Program-made: the position numbers and the translations under genes | The notes under the pieces: generated by a model | Told to the model about the DNA's origin: nothing | Seen by the model: the letters and a program-made list of their open reading frames with translations, nothing else | Database searches by the model: none | Source of the DNA: Thermoplasmata archaeon | Lineage (GTDB): Archaea; Thermoplasmatota; Thermoplasmata; UBA10834 | DNA: 64,000 nucleotides | NCBI GenBank assembly: GCA_041304525.1 | Contig: JBFYNF010000045.1 | Span: 7,479-71,478 of the forward strand | Direction of reading: 5' to 3' | Shown: positions 13,642 through 33,927 of the stretch, piece by piece | How the letters are laid out: each line of letters starts with the position of its first letter | Position numbering within the stretch: position 1 is the first letter of the stretch

Positions 13642-14037
13642 CTAGATCATCCTGATCGTGTCGGCGAGCTTCAGAAGCTCCCCCTTCGCGGCCGATGGAT
13701 CCACCCTGCTCGGGAGGACCGTGACGATCAGAGCCTTGCGGCCGGCGCCCACGACGAGCATCTTGGCGTCCTCACTCTCGACCAGGACACTCTGGGGCGT
13801 GCCGACTCTCAGCTCCGAGTTTGCGGTTGAGGCGGCGCCTATGAGCGTCGCGCACATGATCGCGAAGGTGTCCATTGACACGCCTTCCGGCAGGTCAGCA
13901 GCTATGACGAGGCCGTCCCTGCTTATGATGGCCGATGCGATGGACCCGCAGTTCTGTCTGAGGGCCCTCAAGGCCGGTTTGAGTTCCAATTCAATTCCCT
14001 CCGAGAGGTTCGACCCTGAACACGCAGTGCTTGTCAC
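13642..14037 (-). CDS. Roadblock/LC7 (MglB-like) domain protein
   Basis: ISRDGLVIAADLP ... AKMLVVGAGRKALIVTVLP matches the Roadblock/LC7 core. It overlaps the end of the upstream V4R gene, so the true start is probably a little downstream. Confidence 0.6.
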   Translation of the reverse strand: MTSTACSGSNLSEGIELELKPALRALRQNCGSIASAIISRDGLVIAADLPEGVSMDTFAIMCATLIGAASTANSELRVGTPQSVLVESEDAKMLVVGAGRKALIVTVLPSRVDPSAAKGELLKLADTIRMI

Positions 14038-14476
14038 CCTTGCTGATGCACTCTATCTCCTCGCAGTGGAGACGCCTGTGGCCCTTGGCCTCGTAGACCC
14101 TCTTGACGATACCCCTGAGCCTGTGGCAGGTCGGGACATCCGACTGAGTGGCCTCGATCGAGCCCTCCGCGACGGCGGTGGCCTCCTCGAAGACGATGTT
14201 GTCGACCCATCCCCTCGCCCTCAGCAGGTTGGCGCATATCTCGAAGTACTTCTCGGGCTCCTGCAGAGCGATCTTGGAGATCTCGTCCCCGAGTATCATG
14301 CCCTCCCGGAAGAAGAGGCCGTAGCACGCCTGAGACATCACGCCCTCGTAGAGCTTGCGTATCTCCTCGTACTCGGACTGGGAGAGCTTAACGAACTTCA
14401 TCGTAACCGCTCGTGGATTCGTATGGATGATATTTAAGGTTTGGCGCATGGCCGTCGAGCCAGGCAACCCATGCAC
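13991..14476 (-). CDS. V4R (4-vinyl reductase-like) domain protein
   Basis: C-terminal HCEEIECISKGDKHCVFRV fits the V4R E..C...Gd..C.F motif. Start at 14476 has GGAGGAAG 5 nt upstream; alternative ATG at 14401. Confidence 0.55.
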   Translation of the reverse strand: MHGLPGSTAMRQTLNIIHTNPRAVTMKFVKLSQSEYEEIRKLYEGVMSQACYGLFFREGMILGDEISKIALQEPEKYFEICANLLRARGWVDNIVFEEATAVAEGSIEATQSDVPTCHRLRGIVKRVYEAKGHRRLHCEEIECISKGDKHCVFRVEPLGGN

Positions 14477-14508
14477 TTCCTCCGACGAAATCGTGTTGAA
14501 AAGTCTTT

Positions 14509-20769: not shown

Positions 20770-20919
20770 TGAGCTAGAACAACAACGAAGGCGGATAGGC
20801 CAGGCAGCGGATTCTGGACCCATGTCATAACGGCAGTGCTTCCTCACTACCGTCCTCCAATCCCATGGTCCCAGGACACGATGCCTAGCCTTCCCGCACA
20901 CACCACGGAGGTATGAGAA

Positions 20920-21534
20920 ATGAAGAAGATATCCAAACCCAGAAGGGTGCGGATGGGCGAAGAGGCCGAGATGGGGGTCGGGACATTGCTGATCTTCATC
21001 GCGATGATACTTGTCGCGGCGGTTGCCGCGGGGGTGCTCGTCCAGACCGCGTATGTACTACAGCAGCAGGCGGAGTCGACAGGAGATCAAGCACTGATGG
21101 AAGTGGCAACGGGATTCAGAATACTCGCGGCGTACGGGGTGACGAACCTATCGGTCCCTGAGGTGACCGACCTATACATCAAGATAACCTTGGCGGCAGG
21201 TAGCCCGGTCATCAACCTCGAGCACGTGATCATCGAGATCACGAACGGCGACAACGACGTTTCGCTGGCGTTCAATGTCACTGGCTCTGATGTGGATTAC
21301 TTCGGCGCGACACAGATCAGGGACACCTATCCCACGAACGACTGGACCACTGGCGAGCCGGGGATGACACAAGGCGACATCGCCCTCATCCACGTGAACC
21401 TTAGTGCGAACAGCCTCAGTCTGGCGTCGCAGCAGCAGGCGGACCTGTTGATCATCCCGAAGCACGGCATACCGACATACCTGTCGGTGGTTGCGCCGTC
21501 AGTGCTCTCGAACACCTACGAGAACCTCACCTAG
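20920..21534 (+). CDS. arlB: archaellin (FlaB/ArlB) 1
   Basis: Class III signal peptide ..EAEMG|[26 protein letters not shown] and archaellin core. RBS GGAGGT upstream. Confidence 0.85.
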   Translation: MKKISKPRRVRMGEEAEMGVGTLLIFIAMILVAAVAAGVLVQTAYVLQQQAESTGDQALMEVATGFRILAAYGVTNLSVPEVTDLYIKITLAAGSPVINLEHVIIEITNGDNDVSLAFNVTGSDVDYFGATQIRDTYPTNDWTTGEPGMTQGDIALIHVNLSANSLSLASQQQADLLIIPKHGIPTYLSVVAPSVLSNTYENLT

Positions 21535-21557
21535 AAGGCTTTGAAGGATGTGATTCC

Positions 21558-22019
21558 ATGAACGAGGACGGGGAAGCCGCGTTGGAAGTGATTTCGGTCG
21601 ATTCGAGGACCAACATCATCACGATGCGGTGGCTCTCGTTCCTCATGGACAAGATTGACCCTGAGGCATTGCCTGAGCTGTTCGTCTTCTACAAGAGGAT
21701 AGGGTGGCTGGGAACGCAGGCAGCCGCGTACATGTCTGCGTTGGCCGAAGGGGCGAAGCCCGAAGCGCCTTCTGAAGAGCAGGCGCTGATGGAAGAGGAC
21801 GTCGAAGACCACAACCTCCTGATAAGGAGAGGGACCGATTCCGGAAAGGAACCGATGGTGGAAGAGGTCGACTGGCGGCTGACGCCCGAGGACCACATCA
21901 AGTGCTGGATGTTCATGATGGAGATAGCCGGATTGGACGTCGATAGGAACACTTGGGTAGAGGTCGACGAGCGCATCAGCCGGTTCGAGAGAAGGCTCGC
22001 GGACTACTACAAGGTATGA
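21558..22019 (+). CDS. FlaD/E-family archaellum accessory protein (ArlE-like)
   Basis: Contains the Arch_fla_DE-type block TMRWLSFLMDKI. C-terminal HIKCWMFMMEIAGLDVDRNTWVEVDERISRFE is homologous to the C-terminus of the FlaC/D ORF at 25285-26442. Confidence 0.6.
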   Translation: MNEDGEAALEVISVDSRTNIITMRWLSFLMDKIDPEALPELFVFYKRIGWLGTQAAAYMSALAEGAKPEAPSEEQALMEEDVEDHNLLIRRGTDSGKEPMVEEVDWRLTPEDHIKCWMFMMEIAGLDVDRNTWVEVDERISRFERRLADYYKV

Positions 22020-22153
22020 TACTCTGTAGGTGCTCCGCCGCTGCGCTGAGAGAGGCAAACATACACACAGGGCATCCGAACGTACCTGGACCAGGCTTCG
22101 GCCAAACCCTTTACAATTCTGATTTTCTCCCGTGAAAATCACGGCTGGTCGCC

Positions 22154-22161
22154 TTATATAT
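22154..22161 (+). promoter_or_regulatory. candidate TATA box (TTATATAT) upstream of the giant archaellin gene
   Basis: AT-rich box about 45 nt upstream of motif copy 2 and about 205 nt upstream of the ATG; flanked by a duplicated ATATCAAC. Confidence 0.35.
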
Positions 22162-22202
22162 CAACGGCCCTGATTGAATATCAACAGCCTCCAACGCATC
22201 TC

Positions 22203-22230
22203 GAGGCACTATCCACAGGGCATGTAGACC
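22203..22230 (+). repeat. conserved archaellin-upstream motif, copy 2 (GAGGCACTATCCACAGGGCATGTAGACC)
   Basis: 28-nt version shared exactly with inverted copy 3; followed by the hairpin CTCGTCC-tca-GGACGAG and a GAGCTAG block also seen after copy 1. Confidence 0.6.
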
Positions 22231-22365
22231 GTAGGCTCTCGTCCTCAGGACGAGCTAGTAGGCAGGTCCGTAGGACCTGCCCATTCTGATAGTGTCCCAC
22301 GTTGGTGACCGCTGCAATCCGAACATAGCCACGTTCCATGCCCTCCAAACACGGAGAGGACTGGG

Positions 22366-24087
22366 ATGGGGCTTCGCAAGATCCGACAACTGAGGGCACA
22401 GGACGAAGAAGCCGATATCGGTATCGGTACTCTGATCATCTTCATCGCGATCGTACTAGTGGCGGCCATTGCGGCATCGCTCATACTGTACGCGGCCGCG
22501 CTGCTCCAGGAGCAGGCTGAGAGGACCGCGGACGACGCAGTATCGGAAGTGGCTGGTGGCCTGTCGGTCATCAACATAGCGGGTGACCGAAACCCGGACG
22601 GAGAAGCGTCGACGATAGTCTCGGGATACATGCCGGTGACTGACAACCATGCGCCCATCGGTGGAATACTATGGAATGTCACAGCCTCGACCGACGGGAC
22701 GTCAGTACTAGGGGTTGCCCTGAACTGGACCCCTGCGAACGATTTCGGGTCAGGGTTGTACGAGGAGATCGTGTACCGCACCTCCGTGTACGATCCCACC
22801 AACCCGGCCGTATTCAACGAACAGATCGCAAGGAACCGTCTCTTGACGCTCGACCAGCTGAACCCATCCATGGAGCTCGTCAGGCTCGGCGCGGGTTCCA
22901 GGTCTACCGTCCAATACACTGACTACACCGTTAGGGACGACAACTCGACCTCCTACGCCTACGCCATAGTGGGCGTGGACAGGGCGGGGAACGTCGTACT
23001 CTACACAGCCATCGACAGCTCCACCTCCACGGACGGCTCGTCGCATGACGAGGACCTCGTGCCGCCCTCCGGCGGCTCGATGACGAGCACTGCCAGGCCC
23101 GACGAATATTCAGTGGCGCTGTTCTGGGTGCCTGCGAGTGACGGCGCGAGCGGAATAGATGCTCAGAGGCTGTACAGGACCGAGGGGGCTGTGAGCTCTC
23201 TGCCTATAACCATCCAGGATGGAAGGACCGTGGTGACTGTCCCAGTCACGGTGACACTCTTGGAGGAGTTCAATTCCACCACATCGAGTCACGTCGACGC
23301 TCCCTCTGAGATCGGGGTGTACACGTACTTCATCGTGGTCCGAGACAACGCTGGGAACGAGGAGTTCATCGGCACCCTCAGTTACGACGCGCAGACGGTC
23401 GATTCGAACCCGCCCGAGAACGCAGGGTCGGTATCCGTCAGACAGGCCCCACAGTCAATGAACATATCCTGGACGGAGGCGACCGATGCGCAGACGGCTG
23501 TCTCTTCGTACCTGATCTTCAGGAGCACGAGTATCGGCACCCTTGACACGATTGAAGAGCTCATGACCATGGCGCCGTTGGCGGAGCTCGACTCGAGCGC
23601 CGGGAACTACTCCGACTACTCCGGTACGTCGGGCACGCTCTACTACTACGCAGTCGTGGCAGTCGATTCCGCCGGCAATTACGCTCAGTCCTCGATGCCA
23701 TCCAACACCATACAGATGATCGAGATCAAAGTCAAGACCGTCCCGGGAAGCAGGCCTGTGCAGTTCACGACCATGATGATCGAGATAACCGATGGCATGA
23801 CCGATGTCACCCTGAACTTCAACTCCGGTCAGTTGGGGGCCTCCGGCGCGACCGCCACCATGTTCTCCGCAGAGATCCTGAGGGATCCCGACAGCACCTT
23901 CGCCACCACATTCTCACTCTACGATGGTGCCCTAGTGAAGGTCTTCATCGACGCGGGCGAGATTGGATTGAGCCTGCATGCGGACTCGTCGTTCTCCCTC
24001 AAGTTCATACCGGCAATCGGGCAGCCGACCCTCGAGGAGTGCAGGATACCATACCTCGGTACGTATAGGTACGTAATACTCGTGTGA
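22366..24087 (+). CDS. arlB: giant archaellin (573 aa) with FN3/Ig-like central insert
   Basis: N-terminus ..EEADIG|IGTLIIFIAIVLVAAIAASLILYAA (class III). C-terminus IEIKVKTVPGSRPVQFTTMMIEITDG..VTLNFNSGQ matches the conserved archaellin C-domain. About 330 aa of FN3-like beta-repeats lie between. RBS GGAGAGGA. Confidence 0.75.
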   Translation: MGLRKIRQLRAQDEEADIGIGTLIIFIAIVLVAAIAASLILYAAALLQEQAERTADDAVSEVAGGLSVINIAGDRNPDGEASTIVSGYMPVTDNHAPIGGILWNVTASTDGTSVLGVALNWTPANDFGSGLYEEIVYRTSVYDPTNPAVFNEQIARNRLLTLDQLNPSMELVRLGAGSRSTVQYTDYTVRDDNSTSYAYAIVGVDRAGNVVLYTAIDSSTSTDGSSHDEDLVPPSGGSMTSTARPDEYSVALFWVPASDGASGIDAQRLYRTEGAVSSLPITIQDGRTVVTVPVTVTLLEEFNSTTSSHVDAPSEIGVYTYFIVVRDNAGNEEFIGTLSYDAQTVDSNPPENAGSVSVRQAPQSMNISWTEATDAQTAVSSYLIFRSTSIGTLDTIEELMTMAPLAELDSSAGNYSDYSGTSGTLYYYAVVAVDSAGNYAQSSMPSNTIQMIEIKVKTVPGSRPVQFTTMMIEITDGMTDVTLNFNSGQLGASGATATMFSAEILRDPDSTFATTFSLYDGALVKVFIDAGEIGLSLHADSSFSLKFIPAIGQPTLEECRIPYLGTYRYVILV

Positions 24088-24129
24088 TTCTTGGAAGCCA
24101 GTCGTCCCGGAATCAACGCGGAGCGAATC

Positions 24130-24158
24130 AGGGGTGAGAATCACCCCTAGTAATTTTT
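24130..24158 (+). terminator. hairpin plus T5 terminator after the giant archaellin
   Basis: AGGGGTGA-gaa-TCACCCCT followed by AGTAATTTTTCT. Confidence 0.55.
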
Positions 24159-24217
24159 CTGAATATTTGTATAATAATGTTTATGACTTGTCCTCTCGAT
24201 AGTAAGGGCTCGAGAGA

Positions 24218-24245
24218 GGTCTACATGCCCTGTGGATAGTGCCTC
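24218..24245 (-). repeat. conserved archaellin-upstream motif, copy 3 (inverted orientation)
   Basis: Reverse complement of 24218-24245 equals GAGGCACTATCCACAGGGCATGTAGACC. Adjacent hairpin CCTCTCGA..TCGAGAGAGG. Lies about 320 nt upstream of archaellin 3, downstream of an AT-rich box TTTGTATAATAATG (24166-24179). Confidence 0.6.
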
Positions 24246-24566
24246 TCAAGCCAACCTTGGGAGGCACATCTCTCTCACTCCCCGCTGTAGGGCACGGCGG
24301 TTGCCTCGGAGGTGAGGCGTGAGGACCTGGTAAACACGATTGACCTGGTTGCCGCCAGAATCGATTGATCGCCCCAGAGCAACGACGTGCCAAGTACGGG
24401 GTACAAAACCGTGTGTTTTGGACCTACATCGAGCAGAGGAAGCTCTCGATGTCCCGCCTGTGGCGGGGGAGCCAGGATCGGCTCTGACGATCCCCGCGCC
24501 GGCAGGTTCGCCGGTCGTCCCTCAGGTACGGAACCTGGGAAAGATGCGAGATTGGAGGAAGAAAGA

Positions 24567-25181
24567 ATGCAGAAACTAGCATGGAAGAAGAGGAAGATGG
24601 AAGAGGAAGGTGAGATGGGTGTTGGTACCCTTCTGATCTTCATCGCCATGATACTCGTAGCCGCTGTGGCCGCGGGTGTACTGGTTCAGACCGCATACAA
24701 GTTGCAGCAACAGGCTGAGAGCACCGGTAACGAGGCACTGCAGGACGTCGCCACGGGCTTCAAGGTCCTGACTGTCTGGGGAACCACGGGCACTGGTGGG
24801 AACATCACTGACGTGTACCTGAAGATCGCCCTTACGGCGGGCAGCCCCGGCATCAACCTTGCAGACGCCAAGATCGAGGTCATACAGACAATCGGCGGAA
24901 CCACTGCCTCTGAAGTGACCCTTGATTATGTGGACGGCGCGCCATCGGCATCGGCGTTCAACGCAACTGTGCTGAGGGACATGGCTCCGTCGACGACTGC
25001 CGCGATGATGACCTCTGGCGACATATTCCAGGTCCACCTTGACCTCGAGACGATGGTCATGGGTCTGGATGTCCAGGAGCAGCTCTCTGTGTTGCTGATG
25101 CCGAAGCACGGTGTCCCAACACTGTGTGAGATAACTGCGCCCTCGACGCTCGAGGCAAGCAGCGTGGTTGTCCTGAAGTAG
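24567..25181 (+). CDS. arlB: archaellin (FlaB/ArlB) 3
   Basis: [18 protein letters not shown]|[26 protein letters not shown]; near-identical signal and N-domain to archaellin 1. RBS GGAGGAAGAAAG. The track ORF starts further upstream (24387) without archaellin-like sequence. Confidence 0.85.
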
Positions 25182-25284
25182 AGACACAAGCCTCTGCGAA
25201 CCCGTCAGGGCATCACCAAACCCCTCCCTTTCTGGGAGGGGGATGGTGCCCTGACTAGAGAGCACGGGGAAATGGTGTAAGGAA

Positions 25285-26442
25285 ATGGCTGGCCTGTTCC
25301 GCAAGAAACCAGAGAAAGACGGTTCCTCCGCAAGAAGGAAGCTGAAAGGCTTCGAGGAGGGATTCGAAGAGGAGGCGGAAGAGGGGGCCTACGAGGAGAC
25401 TGAGACTAGCCAGAGAGCCGACAAACTCGTCAGCGCGGAAGATGAAGACTACTTGGGAGAGGACGAGGCCAGCGGCGCAGGTCTCGCAGGCGTCAAGGAG
25501 CTAAGCGAGCTCATGGGACGCCTGGAGGAGATCGAGGACAAGATGGGCCGGATCGACTCCGCTCTCACAACGGATCGGAACGAGAATGCCAAGGTCCGGG
25601 ACCGGCTCAATCAGATGGAACAGGACATCAGGAAGCTCCTTTCCGTCTACGAGGTCGTGTCCACCAAGTTCAACCCCTTCCTAGATGTCTCCGAGAAGAC
25701 CCCCCCACCTGTCCAGCCCCAACCGGCTGTGATGCCTGAGCCCGCTCCGTTCGCTCCAATCGAGCTGGACGGGGACATACCGGAGTTCCGGCCATATCAG
25801 GAAGGGGAAGTGGAGCCGCCCACCTTCAATGGCAAAGGGCCCAAGGCCAGCCGCGACGCCGCCCCGTGGGAGCCAGGGACGTCAACCGCTACCGTTGAGA
25901 CAGTGTTCTCCGGACCCAGGAGAGAGCCCCCACCGACACTCGACAAGACCTCGAAGGACGAGAAGTATGAAAGGCAGGTGAGAGCGTCCGCGAGGAGCAA
26001 ACACAACAAGAAGCCGCTCCTTGCGTACATCCCACACGACTACCTGACGCTGGTCCTCGTGATGCGCTGGATAGAGTTCCTGTTCGAGCGCGTGACCAGG
26101 GAAAGGATGTCGCTCGTGCTAGACTACTATGTCGATGTAGGATGGATCAGCGAGGACGTGAAATCAGAGATCATGTCCTACGCGCGCGGAGAAATGCAGG
26201 ATGTGACCAAGTACATGGGCCAAGAGGAGGTAAGGGAGGACGTGTTCCGCGACCTCCCGCCGCCGACAGCGGCCCCGTACAAGAAGGTCGAGGACTGGCG
26301 TCTGTCCGCAGACGACCACCTGAAGTCCCTGCTGTTCGTGCAGAAGATAGCCGGACTAGAGGTTGACAAGGACCGCCTTAACTCCCTCGAACAGAACATC
26401 TCCAAATTCAAGGAGAGTCTGGAGGGCTTTCATGGGGTTTAG
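25285..26442 (+). CDS. FlaC/FlaD-like archaellum accessory protein (N-terminal FlaC-type coiled coil, C-terminal FlaD/E domain)
   Basis: Coiled-coil block LEEIEDKMGRIDSALTTDRNENAKVRDRLNQMEQDIRKLLSVYEVVSTKFNPF is FlaC-like. C-terminus has LVLVMRWIEFLFERV and ..LLFVQKIAGLEVDKDRL homologous to the ArlE-like ORF. Confidence 0.7.
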   Translation: MAGLFRKKPEKDGSSARRKLKGFEEGFEEEAEEGAYEETETSQRADKLVSAEDEDYLGEDEASGAGLAGVKELSELMGRLEEIEDKMGRIDSALTTDRNENAKVRDRLNQMEQDIRKLLSVYEVVSTKFNPFLDVSEKTPPPVQPQPAVMPEPAPFAPIELDGDIPEFRPYQEGEVEPPTFNGKGPKASRDAAPWEPGTSTATVETVFSGPRREPPPTLDKTSKDEKYERQVRASARSKHNKKPLLAYIPHDYLTLVLVMRWIEFLFERVTRERMSLVLDYYVDVGWISEDVKSEIMSYARGEMQDVTKYMGQEEVREDVFRDLPPPTAAPYKKVEDWRLSADDHLKSLLFVQKIAGLEVDKDRLNSLEQNISKFKESLEGFHGV

Positions 26443-27622
26443 TGTCTCGGCTACAATGGCGATATTCTTCGCCGCCTTTCTAATCCTTTTTTCTATTCTT
26501 TATTCCTCTTTGAACGACGCCTTCGACTCTGTGTCGGAGTCGTTCGATGAGAAGTACGAATACATGAACGATCGACTCGATACGCAAGTGACGATACTCG
26601 ACGTCAGTTACCAGAGGGACTCAAACACCCTAGATATCAGGGTCCAGAACACTGGCAGCAAGGTCCTGGACATATCCAAGGTCGACCTGATTCTGGAAGG
26701 GGCCATCCCCACGTCGTTCAATAAGACCATCCAGGGGACGGACACAGAGGTTTGGCTCCCGACTGAGGTCCTCACGATCACTGTCGATGATCCCGATGTG
26801 TCATTCGAGACTGACCTCGACCCGCGCGCTTCGCTCACCAATGACGCCTCCCTGTCTGCCCCCTCGAATGTCTCCGTTGGAGAGAGCGTCTACGTCCTGG
26901 ATGGACAGGACATAGATGTCTTCACGCTCGGAGGTGTCTTCGATTTCACGATTACAGACTCATCAAACATGGTCTCGCCCTCTGACCTGAAAGTGTGGGG
27001 AGATTATCTCTACGTACTGGACGAGGGCACACACATCGATCGGTTCGGACTCGACGGGGCTTGGGTGGACCGGATAGTGAACGACACGACGAACTCGTCC
27101 ATCCTGACCTCATTCAGCGTCGATTCCGAGTACATATACATCATAGACAACAGGAGCCACATCGACCGGTATGGCCTGGCCACAGGAATATTCGTGGACT
27201 CGATTGTGCCGAACGGAGGCACGATGACATCGCCGCGAGACATCTTCGTCAGCTCGCACATCTTCGTGATCGACTACAGTTCGGGATACCATGTTGACGT
27301 GTACGAGCTGGACGGCAGCGGAGGGACGGAGTTAGTCGGCACGGTAGGGCTCTCGTCGCCAACGGATATCTGTGCCAGCGCGAACGGCCTGGACGACGTG
27401 TATGTGTATGTCGTCAACGGATCGAGCGAGGTGGCCGTGTTCAACGCAACGGGGTCGCCCGTGGACATAGTCGACAGCCTGCTGAGCGACTCTGTGATCG
27501 CCGTAGACGTCACAGGCAAGATGTATGTCTCTGACAATGTGAATGGACTCGTCGTGGAGAACCTGGGTACTAACATCAAAGTGGTGGTAGAGAATGGAAT
27601 CTCATGTGTCACAGTGCAATAG
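26432..27622 (+). CDS. FlaF (ArlF)-like protein fused to a C-terminal NHL-repeat beta-propeller
   Basis: N-terminus MGFSVSATMAIFFAAFLILFSILYSS and the following beta-sandwich match FlaF. From about residue 170, five or six repeats of the type YVLDGQDIDVF / YVLDEGTHIDRFGLDG / YIIDNRSHIDRYGL / FVIDYSSGYHVDVYELDG / YVVNGSSEVAVFNATG are NHL-like. Confidence 0.65.
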   Translation: MGFSVSATMAIFFAAFLILFSILYSSLNDAFDSVSESFDEKYEYMNDRLDTQVTILDVSYQRDSNTLDIRVQNTGSKVLDISKVDLILEGAIPTSFNKTIQGTDTEVWLPTEVLTITVDDPDVSFETDLDPRASLTNDASLSAPSNVSVGESVYVLDGQDIDVFTLGGVFDFTITDSSNMVSPSDLKVWGDYLYVLDEGTHIDRFGLDGAWVDRIVNDTTNSSILTSFSVDSEYIYIIDNRSHIDRYGLATGIFVDSIVPNGGTMTSPRDIFVSSHIFVIDYSSGYHVDVYELDGSGGTELVGTVGLSSPTDICASANGLDDVYVYVVNGSSEVAVFNATGSPVDIVDSLLSDSVIAVDVTGKMYVSDNVNGLVVENLGTNIKVVVENGISCVTVQ

Positions 27623-27625
27623 GAG

Positions 27626-28072
27626 GTGGAGATGATGGGCGCAAGCGGAGCATCGACTCAGCTGATATTCTTCATATCCGCGTTGATCGTGGCAACGGCA
27701 GTAGTCGCCGTGGCCGCCAACGGGGTGTCCAAGATAACCAACGGGATAGACCAGAAGAGCGATAATGTGGAGAAGGATCTGCTGACGGACATTTCGATAA
27801 TAAACGACCCTGACGAGATCCCGAACGACCCTGTCAGGATATATGTCAAGAACGTGGGCAAGACCGTCCTGAACCAAAACTATATCACAGTAATGCTGGA
27901 TGGGTTTGCGGTCACGAACTACACGCTGACGCTGAGCGGGAGCACGTTGTCCTACTGGGACCCCGCGAGCATGCTGACGATATCAATAGACCAGAATTTG
28001 GCAGAGGGGGACCATTCGGTACAGGTGACCACCGAGAACGGCGTCTCTGACAAGCTCAGCTTCCGCATATGA
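27626..28072 (+). CDS. FlaG (ArlG)-like protein
   Basis: Hydrophobic N-terminus QLIFFISALIVATAVVAVAANG followed by a beta-sandwich domain; position between FlaF and FlaH. ATG at 27632 with AGGAGGTGG RBS is the likely true start. Confidence 0.7.
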   Translation: MEMMGASGASTQLIFFISALIVATAVVAVAANGVSKITNGIDQKSDNVEKDLLTDISIINDPDEIPNDPVRIYVKNVGKTVLNQNYITVMLDGFAVTNYTLTLSGSTLSYWDPASMLTISIDQNLAEGDHSVQVTTENGVSDKLSFRI

Positions 28073-28076
28073 CGGG

Positions 28077-28787
28077 GTGAACCCTCCAATGGGGGAGACC
28101 TACAAGCTACAGATACCCAGAGACGACCTACATGACCAGCTAGGTCAGGGCCTCCCCGCGGGAACGATAACGTTGGTCGAGGGAGCGCATGGGACCGGAA
28201 AAAGCGCCCTCGTCCAGCGGATGATCTACGGATTCCTTTCGAACCAACACTCGGTAACGTGCATATCGACGGAGCTGACCGTCAGGGACTTCATCAACCA
28301 GATGTACTCGCTCGACTACCCCATATCCTCATGGCTCCTGAACGGGAAACTGAAGTTCGTGCCTGTGTACCCACTCGTGGGCAAGGCCAGGAAGAGGAGC
28401 GACTTCCTGGGCATGCTGATGGGCTCCGAGGAACTGTACAAGAGTGACATCATGATCATAGATACCTTCTCCAGCCTCGTCAGCAACAGCCTTCATGGGG
28501 AAGACAACAGCATAGGTGTGCTGTCATTCTTCAAGAGACTCACCGGCATGGGTAAGAGCATCGTGGTGACAGTGGACCCGACTGAACTGGACCCTAAGGC
28601 GCTCGCACCGTTCGAGTCGGACAGTCACGTGTATTTGAGCATAATCGTGTCACAGGTCGGCGGGATGATATCCAGGAGCATCATGGTGAAGCGGTTCGGT
28701 GGCACCGAGTACAGGGTGTCCCCGGTCGTGGGCTTCAGGATAGAGCCTAATGTGGGCATGGTCATCGAGATCACATCAGTCGTGTGA
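28077..28787 (+). CDS. arlH: FlaH (ArlH) KaiC/RecA-like ATPase
   Basis: Walker A LVEGAHGTGKSALV and RecA-like core. Conserved operon position before FlaI. Confidence 0.8.
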   Translation: MNPPMGETYKLQIPRDDLHDQLGQGLPAGTITLVEGAHGTGKSALVQRMIYGFLSNQHSVTCISTELTVRDFINQMYSLDYPISSWLLNGKLKFVPVYPLVGKARKRSDFLGMLMGSEELYKSDIMIIDTFSSLVSNSLHGEDNSIGVLSFFKRLTGMGKSIVVTVDPTELDPKALAPFESDSHVYLSIIVSQVGGMISRSIMVKRFGGTEYRVSPVVGFRIEPNVGMVIEITSVV

Positions 28788-28797
28788 GGTCACGGTC

Positions 28798-30429
28798 ATG
28801 GCGGCGAAGTTCAGCAAGGTCCTGGAACGGAATCCCCACCTGAACGTCTATCTTCAGAGATACGCTCAGGAGACAAACCAGTCGCCGAAGTTCATGGACA
28901 CACTGGGCAGGGATCTCGGGAAGGAGGCGACCGTGGATGTCATCTACCCTGTCGGCGACCCGATATTCATACACCTGCACGGCTCCAAGGACACCGGGCA
29001 CAAGTACGATGTCGTGCAGCCAATGATGGAGGACGAGCTTGGCAAAGCGTACGAGAAGGTCGTCAATAATGTCTTCTTGAAGTCAGGGAAGGAGAAGATC
29101 CACTCGACCGATGAGGAGTTCAACGAGGTCCTGGACAAGCTCCTGAACGAAATAGTCGAGGTCACAGAGAGACGCATCCCCTCGAAGGTCGTACAGCTGT
29201 TCAAACCCAACTCCAAGATCTACGTCACCCCAGATGACTACAGCATCCTGGAGTACTACGTCAAGAGGAACATCCTCCAGAACGGCATCCTCGAACCGAT
29301 ACTCAGGGACCCGTACATAGAGGACATCCACTGCGTCGGCGTCAGGGAGGTGAACCTGTACCACAAGATCCTGGGCATGGTGGAGACGAACATCAAGTTC
29401 TCGAACGTCTCAGACCTGGACAAGTACACCAAGGGGATGAGTGAAAGGATGGGTCGTCCCGCATCGATATCGAGACCGATCATCGACGGCGCCCTCCCGG
29501 ACGGTTCCCGTATCAACATCATCTACGCTGACGACGTGAGCGTCAACGGGCCGACATTCACCATCAGGAAGTTCTCAGCGGAGCCGCTGAGTGCCGCTCA
29601 ACTCTCTGGATGGAACACTGTCTCCGCGCAGGAGGCCGCATACCTCTGGCTCTGTCTCGAGAACGGCATGAGCGTGTTCGTCTGCGGTGAGACCGCCTCA
29701 GGTAAGACGACCCTGCTCAACGCCATATTCCCGTTCATAAGGTACGACCAGAAGATATTCTCGGCTGAGGACACCCTGGAGGTGCAGCCGCCTCACGCCG
29801 TCTGGCAACAATTATCCACAAGGGAGTTCGGCCCGGAGGAGAGCAAGGTGGACACCTTCGCCCTCCTGAGAGCTGGACTCAGGTCCAGACCCAACTACAT
29901 CATCGTGGGTGAGATCAGAGGGAAGGAAGGGAACGTCGCGTTCCAGGCGATGCAGACTGGCATCCCGGTCATGGCGACATTCCACGCCGCCTCCGTCAAG
30001 AGGATGATACAGAGGTTCACCGGCGCCCCGATCAGCGTGCCCATCACGAGCATGGACAACCTCAACGTGGCGGTCTTCCAGGCGGGCGTATACAGGAACG
30101 GGAAGTTGATCAGGAGGACCCTGTCCATCGAGGAGATACTGGGCTACAGCGAGTCGATGGGCGGAGTGATGACCAGGGCAGTCTTCGTATGGAACCCGGT
30201 GAGCGACCAGCACATATTCCGAGGGATGAACAACTCGTTCATACTGGAGGAAAGGATCGCCGTCAAGAGGGGGTACAAGGACAAGAGGGACATATACAAG
30301 GAACTCGCCCTCAGGACCAGGATCATCGAGAAGATGGTCGAGACGAACATGACCTCCTACAAGACAGTCAACGACATCCTCAAGGCATTTCAGAAGGAGG
30401 GAGTGGCCGGCCTGCCGTTCACGGTCTGA
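28798..30429 (+). CDS. arlI: FlaI (ArlI) archaellum assembly/motor ATPase, copy 1
   Basis: Secretion ATPase of the type II/IV family: Walker A VCGETASGKTT and Walker B/His box. N-terminus MAAKFSKVLERNPHL. Confidence 0.9.
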   Translation: MAAKFSKVLERNPHLNVYLQRYAQETNQSPKFMDTLGRDLGKEATVDVIYPVGDPIFIHLHGSKDTGHKYDVVQPMMEDELGKAYEKVVNNVFLKSGKEKIHSTDEEFNEVLDKLLNEIVEVTERRIPSKVVQLFKPNSKIYVTPDDYSILEYYVKRNILQNGILEPILRDPYIEDIHCVGVREVNLYHKILGMVETNIKFSNVSDLDKYTKGMSERMGRPASISRPIIDGALPDGSRINIIYADDVSVNGPTFTIRKFSAEPLSAAQLSGWNTVSAQEAAYLWLCLENGMSVFVCGETASGKTTLLNAIFPFIRYDQKIFSAEDTLEVQPPHAVWQQLSTREFGPEESKVDTFALLRAGLRSRPNYIIVGEIRGKEGNVAFQAMQTGIPVMATFHAASVKRMIQRFTGAPISVPITSMDNLNVAVFQAGVYRNGKLIRRTLSIEEILGYSESMGGVMTRAVFVWNPVSDQHIFRGMNNSFILEERIAVKRGYKDKRDIYKELALRTRIIEKMVETNMTSYKTVNDILKAFQKEGVAGLPFTV

Positions 30430-30443
30430 TCCGCGTTTGCTGG

Positions 30444-30509
30444 CACTGATAGTCAGGCCTGAGAATTGGGCGCCAACCCTTATTACTTCAGGTTCTGGAT
30501 TGGCCTTTG
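30444..30509 (+). promoter_or_regulatory. conserved promoter/start module A (shared with 34185-34252): TGATAGTCAGGC..GAGAATTG.GCGCCAA.CCTTAT, about 22 nt, then start codon and GCCACCG
   Basis: About 36 of 41 nt identical to the element before the surface-protein gene. Same spacing (22-24 nt) from the TTAT(T/G)A box to a start codon (TTG 30507), consistent with a BRE/TATA and leaderless start. Confidence 0.5.
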
Positions 30510-30608
30510 AGGCCACCGAGCGCAGGCTCCACAGGGCTACCTCCGCCCAAGGGTGCGGCATTGGCTCTGCTCAGGAGCCGCTTGAGGCGCCTCAGCGGAT
30601 GGGTGAGG

Positions 30609-32258
30609 ATGCCTGCAGACGAAGCTGGCCTGAAGAAGGCCATGAGGAAGAACCCGCACCTCCTTGAATACGTCCAGGAGTTCGTCAGCAGACACAGGTC
30701 GCCTCCAGAGTTCCACCCCGTGGTCGAACGCAAGATGGGGGACGAGCAGCAGGTCAACGTGATCTACCCGATAGGCGACCCGCTCTTTGTCCATGTGTTC
30801 TCGACAGATAGCATACCCATCAGCTACAAGTCCGTGCAGCCGCCGATGACGCCGGACCTGCAGCCCAAGTACAGAAAGGTCATCCAACAGGTCTACAACA
30901 AGGCCGTCTACATGGACCCGCACGAATCTGTGGAGGAGTTCGAGAAGAATCTCCTGCAGCTGATAGACGCCTCGACAAAGATCTCCGAGAGCAGCACGGA
31001 TGGCGACGGCAAACGCATCTTCGGCGACCTTTTCACGGAGCCAAAGATATTCGTCACCCAGCACGAGCAAGACCTGATCAAATACCATGCGAAGCTGGCG
31101 ATTGTGCTAGCAGGACCCCTTGAGCCACTCCTCAGAGACCCGTACATCGAAGATATCCACTGCATCGGACACGACAACGTCTCCATCGTCCACAAGATAT
31201 TCCAGGCGATGCCGACCGATGTGAAGTTCGAGTCGATGGAGGAACTCGACAACTATGTTCGGGCCTTGAGCGAGAGGATAGGCAGGCCGGCGTCGATGGC
31301 TAGGCCGATAGTGGACGGTACGCTTCCTGACGGGTCACGTATCAACCTCATCTACGCTGACGATGTGAGCGTCAAAGGCCCCAGCTTCTCCATCAGGAAG
31401 TTCGCCGAGGAACCTATAAGCATAACCCACCTGATCGAATGGAACACCATCAGCGCCCAGGAAGCCGCCTACATATGGCTCTGCCTGGAAGAAGGCATGA
31501 GCATATTCTTCTGCGGGGAGACGGCGTCGGGCAAGACGACGACCATGGGCGCGGCCCTCCCATTCATCAAGTACGACAGCAAGGTCTACACGGCCGAGGA
31601 CACCATCGAGATGCAGGTTCCACACAAGGTGTGGCAGAGGTTGGCAACGCGGGACTTCGGCCCTGAGGAGAGCAGGGTCGACACGTTCTCACTGCTCAAG
31701 GCCGCTCTAAGATCGAGACCGAACTTCATCATAGTCGGAGAGATTAGGGGCAAGGAAGGGAGCGTTGCGTTCCAGGCCATGCAAACGGGCCACCCCGTCC
31801 TGTCCACGTTCCACGCGGCATCGACGAGGAAGCTCATACAGAGATTCACCAGCGACCCCATCAATGTGCCCATCACGTTCATAGACAACCTGAATGTCGC
31901 GTTCTTCCAGGCAGGCGTGTACAGGGAAGGTAAATTCCTGAGACGGACGATGTTCATTGATGAGATCGTCGGGTACAACGAAGCGCTAGGCGGGATCATG
32001 ACCCGGACCATCTTCCTGTGGAACGCCGCGGACGACTCTCACATGTTCAAGGGGATGAACAACTCCTACATCCTCGAGGAGAAGATTGCGGTCAAGAGGG
32101 GCTACAGTGACAAGAGGAAGATATACGGTGACCTGGCCCTCAGGACCAAGATACTCGAAGAGATGGTCTCCAGGAAGATATTCAAGTACGAGAAGGTGGC
32201 GGAGATAACCAAGGAGTTCCAGAAGAAGGGGGTGAGCGGCCTACCGTTCCCCGTGTAG
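30609..32258 (+). CDS. arlI: FlaI (ArlI)-family ATPase, copy 2 (tandem paralogue)
   Basis: About 60-65% identical to copy 1 over the ATPase core (GRPASMARPIVDGTLPDGSRINLIYADDVSV...CGETASGKTT). ATG 30609 aligns with the copy-1 N-terminus. An in-frame TTG at 30507 adds 34 Arg/Pro-rich residues and sits at the conserved promoter-module spacing, so the true start may be 30507. Confidence 0.85.
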   Translation: MPADEAGLKKAMRKNPHLLEYVQEFVSRHRSPPEFHPVVERKMGDEQQVNVIYPIGDPLFVHVFSTDSIPISYKSVQPPMTPDLQPKYRKVIQQVYNKAVYMDPHESVEEFEKNLLQLIDASTKISESSTDGDGKRIFGDLFTEPKIFVTQHEQDLIKYHAKLAIVLAGPLEPLLRDPYIEDIHCIGHDNVSIVHKIFQAMPTDVKFESMEELDNYVRALSERIGRPASMARPIVDGTLPDGSRINLIYADDVSVKGPSFSIRKFAEEPISITHLIEWNTISAQEAAYIWLCLEEGMSIFFCGETASGKTTTMGAALPFIKYDSKVYTAEDTIEMQVPHKVWQRLATRDFGPEESRVDTFSLLKAALRSRPNFIIVGEIRGKEGSVAFQAMQTGHPVLSTFHAASTRKLIQRFTSDPINVPITFIDNLNVAFFQAGVYREGKFLRRTMFIDEIVGYNEALGGIMTRTIFLWNAADDSHMFKGMNNSYILEEKIAVKRGYSDKRKIYGDLALRTKILEEMVSRKIFKYEKVAEITKEFQKKGVSGLPFPV

Positions 32259-32265
32259 GTCCTCC

Positions 32266-33927
32266 ATGGCTGCGAGCAAGATGAAGCGTCTCTACCAGTC
32301 CCTCGACATGCCCGTTGAGAAGTACTTCACGAGATACGCTCTCCCGCTCGTGATAGCGGGCATCGGCGCGACTGCCCTGCTGGTCTTCCTATTCCCCGAA
32401 CTGGCGGCCGATGGGCTGTTCAAGTATGTGTTCCTGGCAATCCCTGTCCTCTTCTCGGTCGTGGCAGTAATATACCCGATGCTACAGGGTGAACGGAAGA
32501 AGGTCCAGATAGAAAGGAACATGCACCTGTTCCTCGTCAGGATGAGCGTCCTCTCGACATCGAAGCTGCCAAGGAAGAAGATGCTCGAGATCCTTTCGAA
32601 GGTCAAGGAATATGAAGCGCTCAGCCTTGAAATCGAGAAGATCTACAAGCTCATGGAATACTGGAACATGGGTCTCTCGGACGCCGCGAGGACCGTCTCC
32701 CGCAAGACTCCCTCGCCGATGCTAGCAGATTTCCTCGACAGGCTCGCGCACTCATCCGATGCGGGCGAGGACCTCGAGGAGTTCCTCACCAAGGAGCGGG
32801 AGGTGTCCATGAGCGTCTACATCAACAAGTACGAGACGGCGCTCAAGGACCTCGACCTGCTGAACGAGATATTCGTCGCCGTGCTGATATCCCTGATGTT
32901 CATCCTCGTGTTCGTCGCGCTCCTGCCCGTGTTCGTGGACATATCCATCACCCTCATTCTTCCGGGCGTCGCGCTGCTGTTCGTCATCGTCGAGGGGATG
33001 GTGCTGTATCTGGTCAAATCGCTACTTCCATCGGACCCCATATGGCACAACATCAAGGGGCAGACCGAGATCGACAAGGTGATGAAGTCCGTCCTTCCGG
33101 CGACATACGCGGCATGCATCGGGTTCGCCGCCTTCGGGTTCCTGACGGGCTTACCCCTGATGCTCATAGTCGCGCTTGTCGTCACACCGCTCCTGTATCC
33201 AGGGTTCATGATAAGGAGGGAGGAGAAGCGGGTCAGGGCCAGGGACGAGAACTACGATTCGTTCATGAGGGCCGTGGGCAGCTACGCGGCATCTGCTGGC
33301 TCCGCGGTCACGGATGGCGTCGGCAGGCTGAGCAAGCACGACTTCGGGGAGCTCTCGGAAGGCATAGTGATCCTGTACAAGCGCCTGCTCACCCGGATAG
33401 ACCAGATACGCGCCTGGAACCTGTTCGCAGCCGAGAGCGGGAGCAACCTGATCTCCAAGTTCACGGAGATGTATGTCGTCGGTCTGTCCGTGGGCGGGAA
33501 GGTGGACAAGGTCATCGACATCATCAGCGACAACTTCGTGAAGCTGATGGGCGTCAGGCGCAAGAGGTACCAGTCATCCGACAACATGCTGGGGACATTG
33601 TATGGGATGTCCGTCGGCATAACGTTCACCTTGTTCTCCGCGCTGAGCCTGATGCAACTCCTGAACATCATGAACGAGCAGTTCGCGCTCTCCCAGACGA
33701 CGATCAATCTGCCCATCGCGCTGAAGCCATTCGACCTGGGCCTGGCTGAGGCGGTCTTCCTGCTCATCATGCTCGTGCACTCGCTCATATCCGCGAACCT
33801 CGTCTCCTTCGCCGGCGGCAGCCACAAGCATAGTTTCTACATCAACTTCGCAATCATAACATGGATCAGCACCGTGACGGCCATCGTCACACAGTTGATG
33901 CTCGACAAGGTCCTGAACCTCTCATGA
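32266..33927 (+). CDS. arlJ: FlaJ (ArlJ) polytopic membrane platform protein
   Basis: 553 aa with two TadB/C (T2SSF)-like halves and multiple TM helices. Immediately follows the FlaI genes. Confidence 0.85.
   Translation: MAASKMKRLYQSLDMPVEKYFTRYALPLVIAGIGATALLVFLFPELAADGLFKYVFLAIPVLFSVVAVIYPMLQGERKKVQIERNMHLFLVRMSVLSTSKLPRKKMLEILSKVKEYEALSLEIEKIYKLMEYWNMGLSDAARTVSRKTPSPMLADFLDRLAHSSDAGEDLEEFLTKEREVSMSVYINKYETALKDLDLLNEIFVAVLISLMFILVFVALLPVFVDISITLILPGVALLFVIVEGMVLYLVKSLLPSDPIWHNIKGQTEIDKVMKSVLPATYAACIGFAAFGFLTGLPLMLIVALVVTPLLYPGFMIRREEKRVRARDENYDSFMRAVGSYAASAGSAVTDGVGRLSKHDFGELSEGIVILYKRLLTRIDQIRAWNLFAAESGSNLISKFTEMYVVGLSVGGKVDKVIDIISDNFVKLMGVRRKRYQSSDNMLGTLYGMSVGITFTLFSALSLMQLLNIMNEQFALSQTTINLPIALKPFDLGLAEAVFLLIMLVHSLISANLVSFAGGSHKHSFYINFAIITWISTVTAIVTQLMLDKVLNLS

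Follow-up and report, generated by a model that had tools for sequence, protein, structure and literature searches.

A V4R-domain gene and a Roadblock/LC7 gene on a contig of an uncultured Thermoplasmata archaeon make up what is predicted to be an autonomous, translationally coupled bicistronic operon, and the pair points to a sensor–adaptor complex rather than to a demonstrated GTPase regulator. We assign a probability of roughly 0.55 to the reading that this operon encodes an obligate complex of the two products, in which the V4R protein would provide the input and the Roadblock protein the output. The analysis started from a 64-kb stretch of DNA (called here the window) and from an earlier description of the locus made from its letters (the sequence-only reading), and was extended to related loci in genomes and metagenomes, to profile and structure comparisons and to the literature.

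Gene models and expression signals

That adjacent minus-strand ORFs encode a V4R and a Roadblock/LC7 protein had been proposed in the sequence-only reading, and profile searches bear this out for both: the V4R ORF scores 43.5 bits against Pfam PF02830 (cut-off 31) and the Roadblock ORF 42.2 bits against Robl_LC7, PF03259 (cut-off 23), each above the gathering threshold. The overlap of about 45 nt attributed to the two genes turned out to be an artefact of the maximal ORFs, which run from 13991 to 14476 and from 13642 to 14037, both on the minus strand. Nearly all V4R relatives, of which 106 were found in 5.8 billion proteins, are 136–139 aa long and begin with MKFVK, and nearly all Roadblock relatives (169 found in the 5.8 billion) are 115 aa long and begin with MELKPAL. 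Because of these homolog lengths the true starts are taken to be the ATG at 14401 and the TTG at 13989 (Table 1), and in the revised models the Roadblock start codon follows the V4R stop codon after a single nucleotide. The maximal-ORF models are ruled out by the homolog lengths together with the composition of the N-terminal extensions, both of which are without the GC3 bias that is strong in the two gene bodies. The gene calls on a matching contig from a JGI metagenome gave the same two genes. A plus-strand ORF of 259 aa (13658–14437) was rejected as an antisense shadow ORF with atypical codon-position GC (0.68, 0.48, 0.66).

Table 1. Positions in the window of the genes and signals of the V4R–Roadblock locus, and V4R–V4R–Robl_LC7 fusion proteins by identifier
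Feature	Position or identifier	Strand	Details
V4R-domain protein gene	13991–14401	minus	136 aa; ATG start 14401, TGA stop 13993–13991
Roadblock/LC7 protein gene	13642–13989	minus	115 aa; TTG start 13989–13987, TAG stop 13644–13642
Predicted archaeal operon promoter	14431–14443	minus	TATA box TTAAATA 14437–14431; purine-rich BRE-like CCAAAC before the TATA box
Shine-Dalgarno-like GGAGGG for the Roadblock gene	13997–14002	minus	within the last V4R codons
GGAGGAAG	14476–14483	minus	outside the functional unit; 1-base overlap with an unused GTG
V4R–V4R–Robl_LC7 fusion	P0305		473 aa
V4R–V4R–Robl_LC7 fusions	P0332, P0375, P0376		482–484 aa
V4R–V4R–Robl_LC7 fusions	P0358, P0373		484 aa
V4R–V4R–Robl_LC7 fusions	P0330, P0374		386 and 416 aa

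For the promoter, the stretch of 100 nt ahead of the V4R ATG was aligned for about 80 related loci. The TATA box of the locus is centred about 33 nt upstream of the ATG; the BRE/TATA motif, which reads ccaaaCCTTAAATAt in the clade of the window and takes the variant form AAAGATTTATAAA or AACCTTTATTA in others, keeps a constant distance from the V4R ATG in nearly all of these loci. In archaea the position of the TATA box indicates that of the transcription start, and the TATA–ATG distance implies that the V4R message would have a very short 5' UTR or be leaderless. The Shine-Dalgarno-like GGAGGG lies 7 nt ahead of the Roadblock TTG, and a GGAGG-like element occupies the equivalent position in most related loci. 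The strong ribosome-binding site that had been assigned to the V4R start, GGAGGAAG, is not one: it sits at a spurious GTG, 75 nt ahead of the real V4R ATG and farther upstream than the conserved TATA box, and shows no conservation in the alignment of upstream regions from about 80 loci.

Conservation of the gene pair

Scanning a single genome for each GTDB species yielded 150 V4R relatives, of which the best 80 loci were examined. These 80 are labelled Thermoplasmatota, among them Methanomassiliicoccales, Sysuiplasma and Proteinoplasmatales MAGs, except for one "archaeon" and one "bacterium" (L084); the V4R–Roadblock junction of the latter has the sequence of that in the Thermoplasmata locus L083, and it is probably a mis-binned contig. 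A Roadblock gene directly follows V4R on the same strand in 76 of these best 80 loci, down to 45% V4R identity. Some other gene lies downstream of V4R in the remaining four (L054, L061, L064, L066), and V4R can therefore exist alone. The reciprocal comparison used 80 metagenome loci seeded from the Roadblock protein, all of them close relatives (66–97% identity); V4R stands directly upstream of Roadblock in every one of the 79 that are informative, with 73 of the V4R genes complete and 6 cut by the contig end.

The junction between the genes is tight, the distance from V4R stop to Roadblock start falling between -8 and +5 nt in 71 of 78 loci. At 13 loci the codon in the Roadblock start position is non-canonical (ACG in 11, CTG in 2); GGAGG still stands ahead of it and the conserved ELKPAL comes next, and starting at the first canonical codon downstream would cost 28–45 conserved residues. 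Such starts would fit coupled re-initiation and tight translational coupling.

In most loci the genes on both sides of the pair are encoded on the opposite strand. One flank holds AMMECR1, a dihydroorotase-like amidohydrolase and a CxxCxxCC protein and the other an aldehyde:ferredoxin oxidoreductase; in the window AMMECR1, the amidohydrolase and the oxidoreductase are all on the strand opposite to the pair. The opposite-strand flanks and the TATA box of its own therefore mark the pair as a self-contained bicistron with no constant third gene. A CBS-domain gene, in several cases with a zinc-ribbon-like CxxC C-terminus, lies upstream on the same strand at only 15 loci. The AMMECR1, amidohydrolase and oxidoreductase neighbours offer no clue to function and may reflect only synteny. 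Pairwise distances of V4R and Roadblock are correlated with r = 0.94, above the correlation of either one with neighbour genes, and the partial correlation with two syntenic neighbours controlled is 0.63, against 0.24 for V4R and its dihydroorotase-like neighbour; as mirror-tree evidence these values are suggestive only and inflated by shared phylogeny.

The V4R protein and its possible input

The V4R protein of the locus consists of the V4R domain alone as a stand-alone fold, and the members of its family are all 130–150 aa long. A profile search run exhaustively over 1.84 billion cluster representatives shows the family to be small, with 304 matches at E ≤ 1e-3, 20 of them at E ≤ 1e-30. The predicted structure has the two-layer alpha/beta fold of the V4R/Bet3/H-NOX type. 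Its highest structure comparison scores are to PoxR (17.0), DmpR (16.3) and MJ1460 (14.0), followed by BcsD and YslB (about 11.6–11.9), by TRAPPC3 from Thor, TRAPPC5, Trs31 and Bet3 (10.7–11.5) and by H-NOX (8.5); the Foldseek ranking gives the same order, with PoxR and DmpR first.

The E..C...GD..C.F motif that had been noted in the V4R protein is present as E115-x2-C118-x3-G122-D123-x2-C126-x-F128, and E115, C118, G122, C126 and F128 are invariant across 71 V4R homologs. With C92, which is likewise invariant in the 71 sequences, E115, C118 and C126 make up the zinc-site signature Cys...Glu-x2-Cys-x7-Cys, and the protein is accordingly annotated with a putative Cys92/Glu115/Cys118/Cys126 zinc site. 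In the profile alignment C92, C118 and C126 fall on C155, C181 and C189 of MopR, which coordinate zinc (PMC9556785); this alignment spans residues 146–190 only, and the phenol-anchoring His/Trp pair (H106, W134) is not alignable.

The same cysteines allow a different view of the input, namely that V4R is no small-molecule receptor but senses redox state by a thiol/zinc switch like that of MsvR, with oxidation freeing the zinc or forming disulfides and so altering the association of V4R with Roadblock. We consider this improbable, though it fares best among the alternatives. The spacing of 26 and 8 residues between the three invariant cysteines is identical to that of C206, C232 and C240 in Methanosarcina acetivorans MsvR, where their mutation alters redox-dependent DNA binding (PMC3729527); the C-terminus of MsvR is the sole NCBIfam match of the protein; and the host looks anaerobic, with the aldehyde:ferredoxin oxidoreductase and a ferredoxin next door. 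Against a switch of this kind, the equivalent MopR cysteines form a purely structural zinc site (PMC9556785), the top structural matches are ligand-bound phenol sensors, and the MsvR match covers the C-terminal 45 residues at 25.1 bits against a cut-off of 220. The methanogen MsvR proteins are redox sensors that combine an HTH with V4R, whereas the V4R protein of the locus is without an HTH and, on this architecture and score, is not an MsvR.

The Roadblock protein

The AF2 model of the Roadblock protein (pLDDT 89.1) predicts the full topology a-b-b-a-b-b-b-a including the C-terminal helix, with helices at residues 3–14, 39–59 and 98–113 and strands at 18–23, 28–32, 67–71, 75–82 and 86–93. Foldseek places it at a TM of 0.89 to the Asgard Roadblock homodimers 9JUE and 7F8M and of 0.8–0.9 to MglB, including MglB chains taken from MglA complexes, and it also superposes on CvnB and LAMTOR subunits. 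At the sequence level the Roadblock profile matches Asgard Roadblock proteins with E ~1e-8. Helix 2 (residues 39–59) shows hardly any variation and contains many small residues, and it may also form the partner-binding face, as in the MglA–MglB structures. The same helix is the dimerisation element in Roadblock dimers (PMC10933270). Neither the Roadblock nor the V4R protein matches any of the PADLOC defence models. Roadblock/LC7 proteins are abundant in archaea.

Domain fusions

Among the distant profile matches are single polypeptides of the composition V4R–V4R–Robl_LC7, which form four clusters at 50% identity (Table 1); one of them, P0374 (OYT27397.1), comes from a Candidatus Altiarchaeales MAG. 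The fused V4R domains belong to a different, tandem V4R subfamily and not to the stand-alone V4R of the operon. As gene-fusion (Rosetta-stone) evidence they indicate that V4R and Roadblock domains would work together physically, also outside Thermoplasmata. The view of the two genes as one functional module, put forward in the sequence-only reading, is in this way backed by two-way linkage, by the coupled junction and by domain fusions. Other partners fused to V4R are ACT, Cache, thioredoxin and, very often, a KaiC-like ATPase, a diversity that fits a role of V4R as a modular input domain. Three further candidates were left out as fusions: P0275 (253 aa), a suspect on account of its length, is V4R with a helical tail and holds no Roadblock domain, and the short V4R/Roadblock hybrids P0310 and P0258 resemble frameshifted or merged gene calls.

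Small GTPases

The sequence-only reading had seen in the pair a small-GTPase module without its GTPase. The domain calls behind that description stand, and the window does lack an MglA- or Arf-like gene, as had been remarked: a scan for P-loop/DxxG/NKxD motifs found no small GTPase in the 64 kb, and an HMM from Ras-like GTPases of Thermoplasmata (loci L073 and L075) had no match there. The P-loop proteins in the window are ArsA, a KaiC-like ATPase, two T2SSE-type ATPases, ABC ATPases and an HTH-AAA-TPR STAND protein. The two T2SSE-type ATPases adjoin archaellin genes.

The link to a GTPase finds no backing beyond the window either. There is no small GTPase within 10 kb in 78 of the best 80 of 150 related loci, none within 4 kb in the 80 metagenome loci seeded from Roadblock, and none beside the fusion gene in L087. 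Just two loci have Ras-family genes at a distance of up to 10 kb from the pair, L073 with three in tandem about 2.8 kb downstream and L075 with one; the Pfam Ras scores of the GTPases in L073 and L075 are 129 and 101 bits. The adjacency in L073 is lineage-specific, because the sister loci of L073, L067 and L080, are without GTPase genes. Some Thermoplasmata encode small GTPases, but without conserved linkage to the pair.

An unlinked partner is nevertheless conceivable, since 328 of the 749 MglB homologs surveyed in prokaryotes lack a coupled MglA-family gene, and the survey states that none of the 328 had been characterised (PMC4316618). On such a reading the pair would regulate, in the manner of a GAP or GEF, a small Ras-, MglA- or Arf-like GTPase whose gene lies elsewhere in the genome, with a Roadblock dimer contacting the GTPase as MglB does MglA and V4R as a co-factor. 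The placement of the Roadblock model on MglB, the frequency of GTPase-unlinked Roadblock proteins and the occurrence of Ras-family GTPases in some Thermoplasmata, three of them near the pair in L073, speak for it; the empty neighbourhoods listed above and the lineage-specific character of the L073 arrangement speak against it, and MglB has no catalytic signature to look for in a sequence. MglB is said, in the 2011 work of Miertzschke et al., to contribute no catalytic residue. We regard a GTPase regulator of this kind as unlikely, somewhat more so than the redox switch. Both MglB, the GAP of MglA, and the Asgard Roadblock homodimers (7F8M, 7YH1, 9JUE) share with the protein of the locus the full Roadblock topology with its C-terminal helix. 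Coupled MglB proteins, however, are those encoded within four genes of mglA (PMC4316618), whereas the locus has no linked GTPase and its conserved partner is V4R.

A model for the proposed complex

The sensor–adaptor complex that we favour would work as follows. The V4R and Roadblock products most likely assemble into one hetero-oligomer, as suggested by the coupling, the two-way linkage and the fusions; a V4R2:Robl2 stoichiometry is likely by analogy with V4R dimers, Roadblock dimers and the V4R–V4R–Roadblock fusions. The V4R subunit would receive the input, a direction of signalling that follows the roles of the two folds elsewhere. This input could be a small hydrophobic ligand, bound in the pocket that PoxR, MopR and DmpR use, or a redox state read through the Cys3/Glu zinc site, as by the same cysteines in MsvR. 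Output would pass through the Roadblock dimer, a platform binding or releasing a downstream protein encoded elsewhere; by the precedent of other Roadblock proteins, this could be an NTPase or a GTPase.

A much bolder extension, which we think very improbable, is that the pairing of V4R/Bet3 with roadblock/longin folds represents an ancient archaeal heteromeric platform that predates the Asgard archaea and was ancestral to the eukaryotic GTPase-regulating complexes of the TRAPP type (Bet3 plus longin); were it true, the complex of Thermoplasmata would regulate some NTPase under the control of a ligand. Slightly less probable still is the reading in which the pair is analogous to the TRAPP core, or its precursor, in prokaryotes and forms a membrane-associated platform of Bet3-fold and longin/roadblock-fold subunits. 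The TRAPP core unites Bet3/TRAPPC3-family with longin-fold subunits, so that the likeness lies in a V4R/Bet3-superfamily fold paired with one of the roadblock/longin superfamily, and a single TRAPPC3–longin fusion has been noted in a Heimdallarchaeon (PMC10933270). The locus differs from TRAPP in that its V4R is nearer to sensor domains than to Bet3, its partner is a Roadblock and not a longin protein, and it has neither a linked Rab GTPase nor other TRAPP subunits.

Least of all do we credit the view that V4R and Roadblock are functionally unrelated and adjacent through inherited synteny alone: the order CxxCxxCC protein, amidohydrolase, AMMECR1, then V4R and Roadblock, then aldehyde:ferredoxin oxidoreductase is kept in many loci, and synteny in the clade is generally high because the wider gene order is conserved as well, but this view is disfavoured by the tight coupled junction, the Shine-Dalgarno element inside the upstream gene, the tolerated non-canonical starts, the linkage in both directions, the independent fusions in distant archaea and the persistence of the pair where the flanking genes differ.

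We class the pair as a putative regulatory module built on a Roadblock protein, its fixed partner being a V4R sensor. Taken singly, both proteins are ordinary representatives of known domain families, and it is their association that may be new; in the full-text literature on V4R with roadblock or longin, no description of a V4R–Roadblock operon or of V4R–V4R–Roadblock fusions was found, the closest being the TRAPPC3–longin fusion of the Heimdallarchaeon. Stand-alone V4R proteins "currently have no clear function" (PMC3791482). The conserved coupled operon and the independent fusions give each orphan family a concrete partner, and the sensor–adaptor complex amounts to a testable hypothesis in which Roadblock serves as the output platform for a small-molecule or redox input. 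As both folds build the eukaryotic GTPase regulators of the TRAPP type, their linkage outside the Asgard archaea bears on the age of such pairings; if the link is a lineage-specific sensor module only, it extends the known range of archaeal signalling modestly.

Comparison with known systems

The V4R-type aromatic-effector sensor (A) domains of the NtrC-type regulators PoxR, MopR, DmpR and XylR are 18–22% identical to the V4R of the locus. In these regulators the sensor is joined in one protein to an AAA+ sigma-54 activator and a DNA-binding HTH, whereas the V4R protein of the locus stands alone at 136 aa and, unlike them, has a separate Roadblock protein as its constant partner. MJ1460 (PDB 2OSO, 2OSD) is likewise a stand-alone archaeal V4R, and only the C-terminal 40 residues align by sequence with the V4R of the locus. 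The Streptomyces conservons (CvnA–D) comprise a kinase-like CvnA, a DUF742 CvnC and a GTPase CvnD, none of which occurs at the V4R–Roadblock locus, but they do place a Roadblock protein, CvnB, in an operon with a sensor component, as here, and the CvnB structures 3KYE and 3LEQ are among the weak or structural matches of the Roadblock protein of the locus.

Roadblock initiation and signals upstream of V4R

At 13 related loci, the position of the Roadblock/LC7 start codon, for which the window has TTG, is occupied by ACG (L009, L033-L037, L039-L043) or CTG (L010, L015). At these loci, the codon lies 1 nt past the V4R stop and 7-8 nt past a GGAGG, and is directly followed by a conserved ELKPAL sequence; beginning the protein at the first canonical start would remove 28-45 conserved residues. 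Taken together, this placement, the ELKPAL motif and the residues otherwise lost suggest that Roadblock is produced there by non-canonical initiation or by termination-reinitiation.

In the window's clade, a conserved GAATCC/AAATCC motif sits between the TATA box and the ATG of V4R and could be the initiator region or a site where a regulator binds. In some lineages, including Methanomassiliicoccales-labelled MAGs, a same-strand gene for a CBS-domain protein (cluster 16; 15 loci, e.g. L050, L056, L075-L081) adjoins V4R upstream, and the V4R TATA box is located in the short gap between the two; at several loci the C-terminus of the CBS-domain protein is zinc-ribbon-like, with CxxC.

A 259-aa plus-strand ORF overlapping the pair was rejected as a shadow ORF, given its atypical GC by codon position (0.68, 0.48, 0.66). 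A gene caller favoring the longest ORF would choose it in error.

Gene neighborhoods and other V4R architectures

The window's archaellum cluster, which includes archaellin genes and an Arch_fla_DE protein, is close to the V4R–Roadblock pair in close relatives only, and this proximity is therefore probably a coincidence. The entire pair occurs twice, in diverged form, in each of two MAGs (L029 and L036 in JBFEPA01, L063 and L082 in JBHIBW01), representing either paralogous operons or mixed bins. Ras-family small GTPases are encoded in the Thermoplasmata MAG loci L073 and L075, the L075 protein having an extra ~100 aa at its C-terminus; the sister loci L067 and L080 are without these GTPases.

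Beyond the pair, V4R domains are fused to a KaiC/GvpD/RAD55-type ATPase (PF06745) in a large family of ~590-aa proteins (P0381-P0493), one of them labelled Chloroflexota. The paralogous double-V4R proteins of locus L086, near which there is no Roadblock gene, are near kin of the V4R part of the archaeal V4R-V4R-Roadblock fusions.

Coordinates of features in the window and at related loci
Feature	Locus	Position	Strand	Remarks
Roadblock start	window	13987-13989	-	TTG
GAATCC/AAATCC motif	window	14411-14420	-	equivalent position in L006-L044
259-aa ORF	window	13658-14437	+	antisense to both V4R and Roadblock genes
Archaellum gene cluster	window	about 20900-32300	+	few kb from the pair
KaiC-like ATPase	window	28077-28787	+	archaellum cluster
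T2SSE/ArlI-type ATPase 1	window	28750-30429	+	archaellum cluster
T2SSE/ArlI-type ATPase 2	window	30507-32258	+	archaellum cluster
STAND NTPase-type protein	window	59169-61925	-	HTH–AAA/NB-ARC–TPR, 918 aa
CBS-domain gene	L005	9418-9948		
Ras-family GTPases	L073	7749-10121	+	three in tandem; Pfam Ras 129 bits
Ras-family GTPase	L075	2155-2982	+	
Double-V4R genes	L086	6895-10175	+	three in tandem, ~356 aa each
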